Of a stretch of 64,000 bases of DNA, positions 23,601 to 25,322 are shown in pieces. The notes below the pieces were generated by a model. It worked only from the letters and a program-made list of their open reading frames with translations. It did not search any database and was not told the origin of the DNA. How positions within the stretch are numbered: position 1 is the first letter of the stretch; each line of letters starts with the position of its first letter. The position numbers and the translations under genes are program-made. Source of the stretch: Candidatus Omnitrophota bacterium (GTDB lineage: Bacteria > Omnitrophota > Gorgyraeia > Zapsychrales > Fredricksoniimonadaceae); NCBI GenBank assembly GCA_030650275.1, contig JAUSEK010000023.1, positions 199,729 to 263,728 on the forward strand, in the 5' to 3' direction.

Positions 23601-25322
23601 GGGAATGAACCGGCTAACGGCACGGAACGAGCGGCTGAAGCGATAGCCATAACCACTTTCCCAGTATTAACTGCAAGTGGTGGACACGAAGTTACGGGCA
23701 GAAAACCGATTGTTGCCGCCAAATTCGGCAGTCTGATGCAAATACGTTCAATCGTGTGGATGGAGATGCTAAGGGCATACGAAAGGATTGATGGCCGGCG
23801 AGAAGCCGACGCCGCAATGCTGGCGCCGTTAAGAGACGGTAATTATCCCGCAGAGCAGGCGGCCTTCAATACGGAGATGGATCGATTATATGGTGAGGAA
23901 TTGAAGGCGGCTTTCGATGATGTTCGTCAAGATGGAAAAGAATATGTATTAGGACCGAGAGCTAAAAGTGCAGTGAGTAACCTTGTTCAATATTATCATG
24001 ATAATGTTGGACGTAATTCAAGAGAATGGCAGCGTAATTTTTATGAATGGGTCCAGTCGCACCAATCATTTTTATCTGCCAATGTTATTGCTGAAATAGG
24101 CCTTGAAACCTATGCACCGTTCTTTTTGGAAAAATTACAGGCAATTGCTTTAGAGAATGATCCTGACGGTAATCCTCGGGCCGCGGCCAGACAAATCCAA
24201 GAAATTGCCAAAGAGGGAATGATTGGCGGGTATGAGGTCAGTGGTGATATTAAACAAGAAGCTCAAAGAATTTTGGTCACACATCCAAACTTGAGTGGAT
24301 TAGCAGAATGGTTGAAGGAAGATCCTTTTCCGACAGTTGAAGAGGGGAGCATACCCGGCTATTTGCTTTTAGTTCGTCACGGAGAGACTACGTGGAATGA
24401 AACCGCTCTTAATATGTGGGCAGGGTGGTTGGGGGCGCATGTGACTGAAAGAGGACGCCAGCAAACACTTGAAGTTGGAAGTAAAATGAATAAGCTTACG
24501 TTTCAACATGCAATTTCCTCTGATTTAATCAGAGCTATCGAGACAATGGAGTATTTTCTCGAAGGCCGTGGGGATACTATGCCCTATGAAACCTCTTCGG
24601 ATTTGCGTGAAAAATCCTATGGTTTTCTGGCTGGTTTCAGGAGAACGGATGTTGCACGATTGTTTACAAGAGTCAAAGATCTGTTCACTTTTTGGCGTAG
24701 GGAACCTGATGGACGTGCGCCAGGAGGAGAAAGTTTTGAAGACACTAAAGAAAGGGTTCGTCACGATTTAGTGCATAGTATTCTTCCCCGTATTGCTCGA
24801 GGAGAAAATGTGGTCATTTCAGCTCACGGGAATAGCTTGCGGGCCCTTATTGCAGCGTTGAGAGAGTTCACGTTGGGGCGAGCTTTGACTAGACAAGAAG
24901 TTATTGATCTCGAAGTACCTCAATCCGCGCCAATCGGGATCATTTTTGATAAATTGTTAAAGGCCAAAGAATTTTGGTCGTCCGAGATAGGTGCTGAGGC
25001 AGTTCAAGAGGCCTTGTTAAACAGTGCCGCCGACGCCGCGATGGCAGGAAAATATAAAGAGCGCAAGCCGGACCAGGCGATGGCGACAACCCCCGGCGGT
25101 ATTGACTTCAACCGCGCAAAGATGCAGATGAACGTGCGCAAAGAGGGCGCGGGCGTGCAGATGCAATTTGACCCAGCCATGATCGAACGCATTAAGCGTG
25201 AGGGCTTTGACGGCCTGGATTTCAAGATCGACACCATTGTCCCCATCACAAACCTGCCAATGCTCCTTGGCCTGCGCAAAGAAGAACAAGAAAGCCGCCC
25301 GCCACAATTGGCCAGCGTGTAA
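20658..25322 (+). CDS. giant secreted mosaic protein, paralog 1 (conserved N-terminal module, variable low-GC centre, dPGM-like histidine-phosphatase domain, conserved C-terminal tail)
   Basis: Signal peptide. N-terminal ~330 aa is highly similar to the N-terminus of ORF 30840-33440. 'LLLVRHGETTWNE...SAHGNSLRALI' histidine-phosphatase motifs near residue 1200-1400. C-terminal 'GGIDFN...IVPITNLPMLLGL' is shared with paralog 2. Confidence 0.7.
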   Translation: MFKKFLNLVLILTFVASSLAPARSYAAPLSLPEPGTMVNLSPAFESVLIKGLKVHPENPFAFDFIVDTGHTGLSVETRHASSLHNESMKLIKYFLTALTIPEKDLWVNLSPYEKDRMIAENLGKTQMGQDMLAQDYILKQLTASLIYPERDLGKAFWDKVYQKAQQLYGTTEIPVNTFNKVWIVADKADIFERGNVAYIVGAHLKVMLEEDYTALNKNQQGLSPPKSSIGGPEHGTSSGFPTKTFGNDSHAMASQIVREVILPSIEQEVNQGKNFAPLRQMFYSMILASWYKMALKDTILTQLYGNQSKTKVGINANNPNDKDKIFEQYLKAYKKGVFNYIKEDASAALSTGASTPSSRQSSGLGRSAQVPRKYFSGGLQMGVDQAMRVVHDLPLGTSLRTGNTFDVAILANTKLAGSDGAMVARIPVNYTNTRTRQAVAGLKLTELGVGYTRLSNGNPTPEMIFTVTTPSGRTIELTGASPAGESEGVRAALFMLDGSAAEDLTLIRDGVLKAVYGDISREDAENRMLKDIFGLDRQQALVQMKADLKGKNIKVALWIAEKVILPKLKDAIESGRVDPAIRYRMDDTQNKSIDDFLINLDIELFGREGYKGDQFLALSGGNVTALSRVGYRLVATLNGVSNEEVLSHGYNPDTGEVDPHQEFGIVHPMPVLIEGAAHGGWLTDFQEFMYLMMLNERERAMKGLAPKFESLLNKIQAVTVALTDILKKQGESVGVGSEAAFMLRNANSNLDPIQYLLDAARKSGLVVGEDYGLSFDWATSEIYHTTADGWPVTGYYLSLEGRLGKLPEIIIPGGTAEGQVRTLGQLITVQGKKYAVLSTINMFDWIKYLITRTNNPLPLATLEDIFAQFDIQGTRMLTGLLYELKRTSGFPFSFQNSNGVTQVMDDMWTTRRDIMRAAIKGTPLGEPLVIGEGRDQEVLNFPQDTFDGGLVKLNQVGPIKWFMQAAAELRARGRDVVDSHRGNEPANGTERAAEAIAITTFPVLTASGGHEVTGRKPIVAAKFGSLMQIRSIVWMEMLRAYERIDGRREADAAMLAPLRDGNYPAEQAAFNTEMDRLYGEELKAAFDDVRQDGKEYVLGPRAKSAVSNLVQYYHDNVGRNSREWQRNFYEWVQSHQSFLSANVIAEIGLETYAPFFLEKLQAIALENDPDGNPRAAARQIQEIAKEGMIGGYEVSGDIKQEAQRILVTHPNLSGLAEWLKEDPFPTVEEGSIPGYLLLVRHGETTWNETALNMWAGWLGAHVTERGRQQTLEVGSKMNKLTFQHAISSDLIRAIETMEYFLEGRGDTMPYETSSDLREKSYGFLAGFRRTDVARLFTRVKDLFTFWRREPDGRAPGGESFEDTKERVRHDLVHSILPRIARGENVVISAHGNSLRALIAALREFTLGRALTRQEVIDLEVPQSAPIGIIFDKLLKAKEFWSSEIGAEAVQEALLNSAADAAMAGKYKERKPDQAMATTPGGIDFNRAKMQMNVRKEGAGVQMQFDPAMIERIKREGFDGLDFKIDTIVPITNLPMLLGLRKEEQESRPPQLASV
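20880..20907. repeat. perfect 28-bp palindrome inside paralog 1 coding sequence
   Basis: GTAGAGACGAGGCATGCCTCGTCTCTAC is its own reverse complement. Its counterpart in paralog 2 is at 31056-31083. Confidence 0.9.
21321..21402. repeat. two-hairpin palindromic repeat element, in-frame copy inside paralog 1
   Basis: TTGTCACCCCCGAAATCTTCTATCGGGGGTCCAG...GGATTCCCGACAAAAACATTCGGGAATGACA encodes '...LSPPKSSIGGPEHGTSSGFPTKTFGND...'. Confidence 0.8.
21701..21768. repeat. hairpin flanked by 15-bp direct repeats inside paralog 1 coding sequence
   Basis: GCTCAGCACAGGTGC ... GTCCCGACAATCGTCGGGAC ... GCTCAGCACAGGTGC. The extra ~17 aa are absent from paralog 2 at the homologous site. Confidence 0.7.

Follow-up and report, generated by a model that had tools for sequence, protein, structure and literature searches.

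Omnitrophota are abundant, uncultured nanobacteria that are thought to be predators or parasites, and they encode long, signal-peptide-bearing proteins packed with enzyme domains of cytoplasmic type. A life as ultra-small epibionts or predators has been proposed for them (PMC10066038). According to passages of a recent preprint, 94% of the long proteins of this phylum carry a signal peptide or transmembrane (TM) helices, and they include "multi-enzyme metabolic clusters" (bioRxiv 10.64898/2026.06.07.730766); passages of another suggest that giant Omnitrophota proteins are cleaved post-translationally (bioRxiv 10.1101/2023.11.21.568195). Here we analyzed a stretch of 64,000 nucleotides (nt) from a Candidatus Omnitrophota bacterium (assembly GCA_030650275.1, contig JAUSEK010000023.1, positions 199,729 to 263,728; hereafter the window) and, within it, a gene at 20658..25322, called paralog 1, whose product of 1554 amino acids (aa) contains a segment of the 2,3-bisphosphoglycerate (2,3-BPG)-dependent phosphoglycerate mutase (dPGM) type. 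With a little more belief than doubt, we read this product as a competent short-form dPGM with a HEAT-like extension, placed behind a complete enolase and carried in an Omnitrophota vehicle of signal peptide, N-domain and C-module with D-x-A-M junctions; such a protein would be exported and would perform the chemistry linking 3-phosphoglycerate (3-PG), 2-phosphoglycerate (2-PG) and phosphoenolpyruvate (PEP).

The described proteins closest to this mutase segment are the short dPGMs, such as the Schizosaccharomyces pombe enzyme (PDB 1fzt) and the 206-aa GpmA, with which it shares the fold family, the length class of about 200 aa without an oligomerisation loop, and the RHG, R, E, second H, WRR and HGNSLR signatures; stand-alone short dPGMs are 36-39% identical to it. 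Unlike these stand-alone enzymes, it lies inside a 1554-aa signal-peptide protein, has an N-terminal HEAT-like extension of ~130-180 aa and bears a clade-specific C-terminal helix, and unlike canonical dPGMs it has an FTGW loop that is longer by two residues and carries Ala for Thr, an Arg for the Lys of GLNK, and scores that lie below equivalog cut-offs. Likewise, the enolase region can be set beside canonical enolases (E. hirae 1iyx, E. coli 1e9i): the N-terminal and TIM-barrel parts are recognisable and the motifs QEFM, DxxxSE, ED, DD, KxNQxG, SHR and KxG(S/T) are shared, whereas the canonical enzyme of ~430 aa contrasts with a domain of ~610 aa that owes its length to several insertions, is fused to other domains and stands behind a signal peptide.

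Results

The mutase domain retains its active site

The preliminary description of this locus had proposed a complete dPGM-type histidine-phosphatase domain on the basis of four motifs, and all four are in place, far beyond chance: LLLVRHGETTWNE (aa 1236-1248, nt 24363-24401), ISSDLIRAIETMEYFLE (aa 1286-1302), REKSYGFLAGF (aa 1317-1327) and SAHGNSLRALIAALREF (aa 1388-1404, nt 24819-24869). Profile searches agreed with this assignment, as Pfam His_Phos_1 (PF00300) covered aa 1236-1407 with 108.3 bits (E=5e-31; cut-off 21.7) and NCBIfam TIGR01258 (pgm_1) was passed with 92.6 bits (cut-off 81.7). The best NCBIfam models were all dPGM models (93-114 bits), and the phosphatase models (cobC, PspA, GpmB and others) gave at most 67 bits. 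The closest solved relative was the short monomeric phosphoglycerate mutase of S. pombe (1fzt, E=3.8e-27), in whose alignment the Arg-His of RHG, the Asn of WN, the Arg, E-x-x-Y, the WRR pair and HGNSLR were all matched.

The catalytic core is intact and unsubstituted (R1240 and H1241 of RHG, R1292, E1318 and the second His, H1390), and the substrate-contact residues N1247, Y1321, R1347, R1348 and N1392 are also kept; thus, all ten dPGM residues examined are preserved despite an overall identity to relatives of just 30-40%. The core is conserved across all the fused relatives described below; the Asn of WN in RHGETxWN is replaced by Ser in most of them and is kept in paralog 1 and in its closest cassette relative, P0122. 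On sequence grounds, then, the flagged segment is a real dPGM-type domain with a complete predicted active site, and it appears to be a divergent new member of the short dPGM clade that misses the equivalog level. Because dPGM models score best, WRR and HGNSLR are kept, an enolase adjoins and the relatives are fused to other enzymes of central metabolism, a mutase is favored over a phosphatase, and the most likely activity would be the metabolic reaction among 3-PG, 2-PG and PEP, relocated.

A divergent enolase precedes the mutase

The preliminary description had regarded the remaining 1500 aa as unrelated sequence. This proved mistaken, as aa ~441-1050 form an enolase domain, and the family architecture described below had also been missed. 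Pfam Enolase_C (PF00113) matched marginally (24.8 bits, cut-off 21.5), at aa ~665-787 together with TIGR01060; Enolase_N (PF03952) went undetected in this protein and was found by Pfam in its relatives P0123 and P0124. When solved structures were searched with aa 415-1214 as a single sequence, ~35 enolases were recovered in several collinear pieces that included KLNQVG and SHRGNE (E=1.9e-11). An exhaustive search of representative proteins added P0123, P0124 and P0134 as relatives of the divergent enolase; the resulting four-sequence profile matched PDB enolases with E=2.4e-39.

All 11 enolase residues examined are intact. These are the Mg ligands D776, E863 and D905 (yeast D246, E295 and D320; D905 was mapped by motif alignment), the catalytic residues E687, E738, K952, H980 and K1022 (yeast E168, E211, K345, H373 and K396), and in addition S481 of the flexible loop, H678 and R981. 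Their contexts are the QEFM region for H678 and E687, GSEAAF in place of GDEGGF for E738, KLNQVG for K952 and SHR for H980 and R981; K1022, in K-x-G-S, was assigned by motif alignment and not from the printed hidden Markov model alignment. P0134 has lost two of the catalytic residues, and since this shows that loss is possible, their retention in paralog 1 is informative. By homology, this region is a divergent enolase whose metal ligands and catalytic residues all appear intact. The cargo would thus encode the consecutive steps 3-PG <-> 2-PG <-> PEP, which argues for a mutase and not a phosphatase beside it.

Passages of the preprint on Omnitrophota long proteins report a canonical enolase in 176/176 complete genomes of the phylum, at a strict threshold (bioRxiv 10.64898/2026.06.07.730766). 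As the divergent domain would fail this threshold, the fused enolase is probably accessory rather than housekeeping.

The mutase travels with an alpha-helical extension among mosaic proteins

The segment between the enolase and the mutase, here called Link, is all-alpha, HEAT/ARM-like and always precedes this dPGM clade. In the exhaustive representative search, Link through dPGM matched as a single unit in P0122, P0125-P0133, P0135 and P0137, and the named mosaic proteins that carry this cassette are from Omnitrophota. Among the 80 best-matching loci in a set of 185,579 genomes, one per species, Link was covered in only three, all of them from Omnitrophota, and the others were stand-alone short dPGMs of many phyla. 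Pfam identified the partners of the cassette: phosphoglycerate kinase (PGK) with dPGM in P0128 and P0129; 2-hydroxyacid dehydrogenase, glycerate kinase, PEP carboxykinase (PEPCK), PGK and dPGM in P0126 (2981 aa); a pyridoxal-phosphate (PLP) enzyme, glutamate dehydrogenase, methyltransferase, dPGM, PEPCK and triose-phosphate isomerase (TIM) in P0127 (4177 aa); and acyl-CoA dehydrogenase, dPGM and glutamate dehydrogenase in P0133 (2815 aa), which has the N-domain and C-module of the family described here. The enolase relative P0123 combines PGK with enolase (Pfam). A signal-peptide-like N-terminus was present in all full-length members of the Link+dPGM set, including otherwise unrelated mosaics.

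One free-standing Link+dPGM gene was found, P0130 (376 aa; locus L085, 2560-3690), which lies downstream of a P-II gene, has no signal peptide and is 43-47% identical, in its catalytic half, to 206-aa proteins annotated as GpmA. As the search returned only this gene plus a fragment, the idea that a free-standing form is the usual housekeeping one was not supported. P0122, which is 50-61% identical to the cassette and has the C-module, lacks signal peptide and N-domain and adjoins a Transposase_mut gene (locus L087, 23-1075 and 1372-4971); it was probably truncated by an insertion sequence element. It was also observed that the signal-peptide mosaics with PGK and enolase, with PGK, and with the 4177-aa multi-enzyme set belong to tandem arrays whose genes are large and for the most part Pfam-dark (L001, 8100-24017; L002, 3-19336).

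A carrier family whose named members are all from Omnitrophota surrounds the cargo

The signal peptide noted in the preliminary description was borne out. The sole hydrophobic segment of the 1554-aa protein is aa 4-22, with an h-region of ~12 residues followed by SYA-A, and the n/h/c pattern with A-x-A recurs in ~95 of 104 family N-termini (K/R in the n-region of 98, an h-region in 95), whose c-region consensus P..A-x-A (AHA, AYA, ASA) is that of a canonical Sec/signal-peptidase-I signal. In paralog 1 this signal leads into the LPxPG...WVNLSPYE N-domain, for which at least 1,360 homologs were counted at E<=1e-3; every named one is from Omnitrophota/Omnitrophica and several come from the same metagenome-assembled genome (MAG). 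The N-domain matched no Pfam or NCBIfam model and no PDB fold. The C-module recurs at the C-terminus of dozens of proteins with 60-78% identity, and signal peptide and N-domain accompany it in 12/12 database proteins with a complete N-terminus and in both full-length copies of the window. No Pfam or NCBIfam model matched the C-module or, more widely, aa 1459-1554, where no C-terminal TM segment was found either, and none of the known C-terminal sorting signals (type 9 secretion system cargo, PEP-CTERM and the like) was recognised in the protein. The cargo between the constant modules is mostly Pfam-dark, with sporadic methyltransferase, GNAT, HAD, NUDIX, receiver, PP-binding and HEAT domains, and the family genes are scattered amid housekeeping genes, with no neighbor conserved from one to the next.

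An NCBI entry, [quoted passage not shown], is 100% identical to the product of this gene, and its model starts at M88 (1467 aa), so that the signal peptide is missing together with the N-terminal 60 residues of the conserved N-domain. The longer open reading frame (ORF) of 1554 aa is favored because the paralogs are homologous from residue 1, and the sequence comparison suggests that the NCBI start is probably mis-called (window 20658-20918).

A short peptide motif marks the cassette junctions

The tetrapeptide D-x-A-M stands at every domain boundary: in paralog 1 it occurs at aa 384, 419, 1051, 1459 and 1472, plus one copy within the C-module, and in paralog 2, a second family gene of the window, at aa 407, 416, 637 and 793. 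These six and four copies compare with 0.23 and 0.11 expected, and the window's remaining 31 ORFs, 12,623 residues in all, have none. Among 120 family proteins, 94 copies were observed vs 6.5+-2.9 in shuffles, mostly at aa 325-425, directly after the N-domain. Because the codons vary (GAC/GAT NNN GCN ATG) and no Shine-Dalgarno-like sequence precedes them, we consider D-x-A-M a peptide motif and not a DNA site or an internal start. The possibility that translation starts internally at the Met of the motif was rejected, given this lack of Shine-Dalgarno-like sequence and a conservation that is at the level of peptide and not of codon.

In other mosaic lineages, (R/K)DG(A/G/S) replaces D-x-A-M and flanks the same Link+dPGM cassette (L007, 6272-11068; L002, 6803-19336), with four copies vs 0.16 expected in the L007 protein and five vs 0.7 in P0127. 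Both motifs may represent cassette boundaries and are candidate processing sites.

The cargo differs in base composition from its carrier

The GC content at third codon positions (GC3) of paralog 1 is 0.61 in the N-domain, 0.36 in the enolase, 0.35 in Link, 0.39 in the dPGM and 0.70 in the C-module. Other genes of the window range from 0.57 to 0.79, except for a Bro-N (0.46) and an ORF6N gene (0.51). A two-breakpoint likelihood fit placed the steps at aa 424 and 1451, beside the D-x-A-M copies at 419 and 1459, and for paralog 2, with values of 0.605, 0.40 and 0.72, the steps fell at aa 454 and 806. In L007 and L002, too, the Link+dPGM cassette has a lower GC3 than the sequence around it. In the simplest reading of this mosaic, cargo cassettes would pass from one lineage to another through recombination events that lie inside the constant modules or at the junctions; a foreign origin of the cargo is one of several possible explanations. 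Coordinates of the features are collected in Table 1.

Table 1. Parts of paralog 1 and related genes in the window.
Feature	Position (nt)	Strand	Description
Whole gene (paralog 1)	20658..25322	+	1554 aa; +1 frame ORF; signal peptide, N-domain, enolase cassette, Link+dPGM cassette, C-module
Sec-type signal peptide (predicted)	20658..20735	+	aa 1-26: MFKK / FLNLVLILTFVA / SSLAPARSYA-A
Family-defining N-domain	20736..21806	+	aa 27-383, ~360 aa
Junction region	21807..21923	+	two D-x-A-M: DQAM aa 384-387, DGAM aa 419-422; maximum-likelihood GC3 breakpoint aa 424
Divergent enolase domain, with insertions	21978..23807	+	aa ~441-1050; Pfam, TIGR01060 and PDB matches, residue mapping
D-A-A-M junction between enolase and Link+dPGM	23808..23819	+	aa 1051-1054; local GC3 rise around aa 1021-1060
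Link, all-alpha HEAT/ARM-like extension	23820..24353	+	aa 1055-1232; always precedes this dPGM clade
dPGM-type domain	24354..25031	+	aa 1233-1458; profile matches and active-site residues
Two D-x-A-M before the C-module	25032..25082	+	DAAM aa 1459-1462, DQAM aa 1472-1475; GC3 breakpoint aa 1451
Family C-module	25083..25319	+	aa 1476-1553, ~80 aa; GGID(L/F)N...MQMNVRKEG.GVQMQFDPAMIERIKREGFDGL.F.I..I.P.TNLP.LLGL; here GGIDFN
Paralog 2	30840..33440	+	866 aa; same signal peptide, N-domain and C-module; other cargo including a degenerate receiver domain
Truncated third copy	60467..60838	+	123 aa; signal peptide and first ~100 aa of the N-domain

Other family copies and the neighborhood

Three copies of the family are contained in the window. 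The N-domains of paralogs 1 and 2 are 48% identical, and this domain is common to the third copy as well. The receiver domain of paralog 2 (32784-33116, aa ~649-759) scored 29.2 bits against a Pfam cut-off of 30.2, and YDLVVTSS replaces its D-x-x-x-x-D, so that the phospho-acceptor Asp has apparently been lost, leaving a pseudo-receiver; this would fit a location without kinases.

The N-domain of paralog 1 harbors, in frame, a palindromic repeat of ~85 nt (21317..21402, + strand) in a variable loop at aa ~221-249. Its parts are GGATTGTCACCCCCGAA...TCGGGGGTCCAG...CTGGATTCCCGA...TCGGGAATGACA, with a folding energy of -41.3 kcal/mol (z=-5.5), and one further copy is located between genes (33889-33972) and half a copy at 5596-5628; the repeat has the appearance of an element resembling a miniature inverted-repeat transposable element (MITE) or a repetitive extragenic palindrome (REP), tolerated within coding sequence. 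A second type of hairpin, GTCATTCCCGCGAAGGCGGGAATCCAG, occurs in frame in paralog 2 (31768-31796, aa ~310-319), where it encodes VIPAKAGIQ in a variable loop of the N-domain. The Bro-N-domain gene (25426-26256) follows paralog 1 and the ORF6N-domain gene (61117-61656) follows the truncated copy; both are of the mobile-element type and they are not similar to each other. Stand-alone genes for PEPCK (29060-30700, between the paralogs) and phosphofructokinase (PFK; 47308-48345) and a complete pyruvate dehydrogenase E1/E2/E3 cluster (3234-8597) indicate that the contig is chromosomal and that a conventional cytoplasmic central metabolism is present.

Discussion

A proposed exported pair of lower-glycolysis enzymes

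In the reading that we favor, the Sec system would export the protein and signal peptidase I would cleave it after A26, and the N-domain and C-module may anchor or deliver it to the periplasm, the surface or a host/prey interface. Cargo cassettes would be exchanged by recombination at the junctions, and the cargo could possibly be freed by proteolysis at D-x-A-M. The enolase-mutase pair would then convert host- or prey-derived phosphoglycerates outside the producer cytoplasm.

Several observations weigh against this proposal. Both domains are divergent: NF002339, the best dPGM model (206-aa GpmA), gave 113.9 bits and did not reach its equivalog cut-off of 316, and TIGR01060 matched the enolase region with only 47 bits (E=1.3e-12) against a cut-off of 300. 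Two substrate-contact positions of the mutase are changed, FTGW to WAGW and the Lys of GLNK to Arg, both of them clade-wide in the fused relatives. An AlphaFold2 model of aa 1050-1554, built on a poor mixed alignment, was good for Link only, with predicted local distance difference test (pLDDT) values of ~40-60 for the dPGM and C-module. Among 1.84 billion representatives this is the only protein to combine enolase with dPGM, a word-indexed search with aa 431-1450 recovered no other protein, and the sequence comes from a MAG. In the window, and in the vicinity of family genes on two long contigs, no conserved neighboring gene for a secretion system or a protease was found. The excess of N-domain over cargo GC3 was weaker in two low-GC genomes, and in one of these the cargo was the host-like part. 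Finally, dPGM needs 2,3-BPG as primer and the PGK and PEPCK of the fused relatives are ATP-dependent, and both would be hard to supply in the periplasm or outside the cell. This cofactor supply is the weak point of the export model, and for this reason a model in which the enzymes face the cytoplasm or a compartment, and another in which they work inside the prey, stay alive.

The preliminary description had favored an effector or phosphatase role rather than metabolism. Of this proposal, the part concerning a role outside the cytoplasm is plausible for a mosaic protein with a canonical Sec signal peptide; a secreted phosphatase that acts on host molecules and has no mutase role seems to us improbable. 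The His_Phos_1 superfamily does contain many phosphatases, two models of which match here weakly (cobC, 67 bits; PspA, 51 bits), the Asn-to-Ser change of most fused relatives is compatible with such a role, 2,3-BPG may be unavailable outside the cytoplasm, and an unprimed dPGM is a weak phosphatase. Nevertheless, dPGM models score 25-45 bits higher and TIGR01258 exceeds its cut-off, N1247, the WRR pair and HGNSLR are kept, and the domain is fused to an enolase, as its relatives are to PGK, PEPCK and TIM. We also find it unlikely that the protein is not exported, or that its enzymes are made from internal starts at D-x-A-M, and that it serves as a membrane-bound metabolon in the cell's own lower glycolysis, even though all recognisable cargo is of cytoplasmic type (ATP-needing PGK and PEPCK; methyltransferase, NUDIX, HAD, GNAT and receiver), stand-alone PEPCK and PFK genes lie nearby, the free-standing P0130 has no signal peptide and each junction motif ends in Met. 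What argues against it is the KK before the h-region, which under the positive-inside rule puts most of the chain on the outside, and the shortness of this h-region, which is followed by a family-conserved P...A-x-A cleavage site; the junction ATGs, as described, have no ribosome-binding signal and are conserved as peptide and not as DNA; the canonical enolase reported in all 176 complete genomes speaks against a role in the cell's own glycolysis; and the receiver of paralog 2 has no phospho-acceptor Asp, as expected where there is no kinase.

Non-catalytic enzyme folds, serving as surface adhesins or decoys like the moonlighting surface enolase of pathogens, are very improbable in our view. 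Passages of one study attribute an adhesin role in many bacteria to enolase at the surface and to further enzymes of glycolysis (PMC4009768), such a role has also been put forward for giant Omnitrophota proteins (PMC10066038), and P0134 does lack two enolase catalytic residues, but in paralog 1 the retention of 11/11 enolase and 10/10 dPGM residues at 30-40% identity implies selection on catalysis. Even harder to sustain is an artefact of metagenome assembly, in which the cargo of a lower-GC population would have been joined via conserved N-domain and C-module sequences. It could account for the abrupt changes of GC3, from 0.61 to 0.36 and up again to 0.70, at the conserved modules, the sequence does come from a MAG and the protein cluster of its product is a singleton; however, it requires two crossovers that lead back to one and the same contig of 325 kb, paralog 2 repeats the pattern with different cargo at a distance of 10 kb, weaker steps of like kind occur in family genes of other assemblies, the DNA identity of the paralog N-domains (73-82%) is too low for k-mer collapse and the reading frame is continuous over both joints. 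The repetition of the pattern in two genes, the two crossovers required, the continuous frame and the low identity thus make an assembly chimera unlikely.

Provided that the two enzymes are both exported and active, steps of glycolysis would take place outside the producer cytoplasm, which would bear on how hosts are exploited, and the compositional mosaic together with the junction motif suggests a recombination-based shuffling of enzyme cassettes that could explain how the giant mosaic genes of this phylum are built. A broader and doubtful extension, which may nonetheless be worth stating, is that signal peptide, N-domain, D-x-A-M-delimited cargo and C-module constitute a phylum-specific Omnitrophota export platform. 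It would send out stretches of lower glycolysis (PGK, dPGM, enolase, PEPCK or pyruvate phosphate dikinase (PPDK), TIM) along with uncharacterised cargo, and processing at D-x-A-M or, in sister lineages, at RDG[AG] would release the enzymes at the periplasm, at the surface or inside the prey, where prey phosphoglycerates would yield PEP and ATP in an extracytoplasmic or trans-cellular glycolysis used as a feeding strategy.

Comparison with known systems

The literature searched contained no description of an enolase-dPGM tandem, the N-domain/C-module family, the D-x-A-M or RDGA motifs, the Link+dPGM cassette or an intragenic GC3 mosaic. Term searches of the two preprints on Omnitrophota long proteins returned passages in which dPGM/His_Phos, and enolase as a protein domain, go unmentioned, and the passages retrieved hold nothing like the N-domain/C-module family, the D-x-A-M motif or the GC3 mosaic.

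In architecture alone, the family resembles the MARTX and polymorphic toxins (PMC3482391), which also have constant termini, variable and recombining cargo of differing composition and many paralogs with different cargo. No sequence or fold homology with them was found, and neither an RTX repeat, a trafficking domain, a cysteine-protease or processing domain nor an immunity gene was detected in the protein or its neighbors; moreover, the cargo consists of central-metabolism enzymes and not of toxins, and the route is marked by a Sec signal peptide and not by a type 1, type 5 or type 6 secretion system (T1SS/T5SS/T6SS). A second parallel is the stramenopile TPI-GAPDH fusion (PMC3527533), a single polypeptide that joins the enzymes of two successive steps of glycolysis and is redirected by a targeting signal at its N-terminus, although that fusion is eukaryotic and mitochondrial, involves other enzymes and has no cassette or vehicle architecture.

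The nearest counterparts are the Omnitrophota long proteins and Archaeovorins, which, as passages of both preprints describe them, belong to the same phylum and likewise combine a signal peptide with cytoplasmic-type enzymes and HEAT-like scaffolding (bioRxiv 10.64898/2026.06.07.730766; bioRxiv 10.1101/2023.11.21.568195). Those proteins measure 10-147 thousand aa, as compared with 1.5 thousand aa here and no TM helices beyond the signal peptide; the marks of the giant proteins (at least 10 thousand aa, many TM helices, dockerin or C39/S8 peptidase domains) are absent here: the product has 1554 aa and a single hydrophobic segment, and Pfam detected none of those domains in it. Paralog 1 nevertheless fits the recently reported multi-enzyme exported proteins of the phylum as a small, well-resolved example and, with two enzymes of standard assay whose active sites are intact, a clean Sec signal, a defined vehicle and a short candidate cleavage motif, it offers a tractable representative of them.

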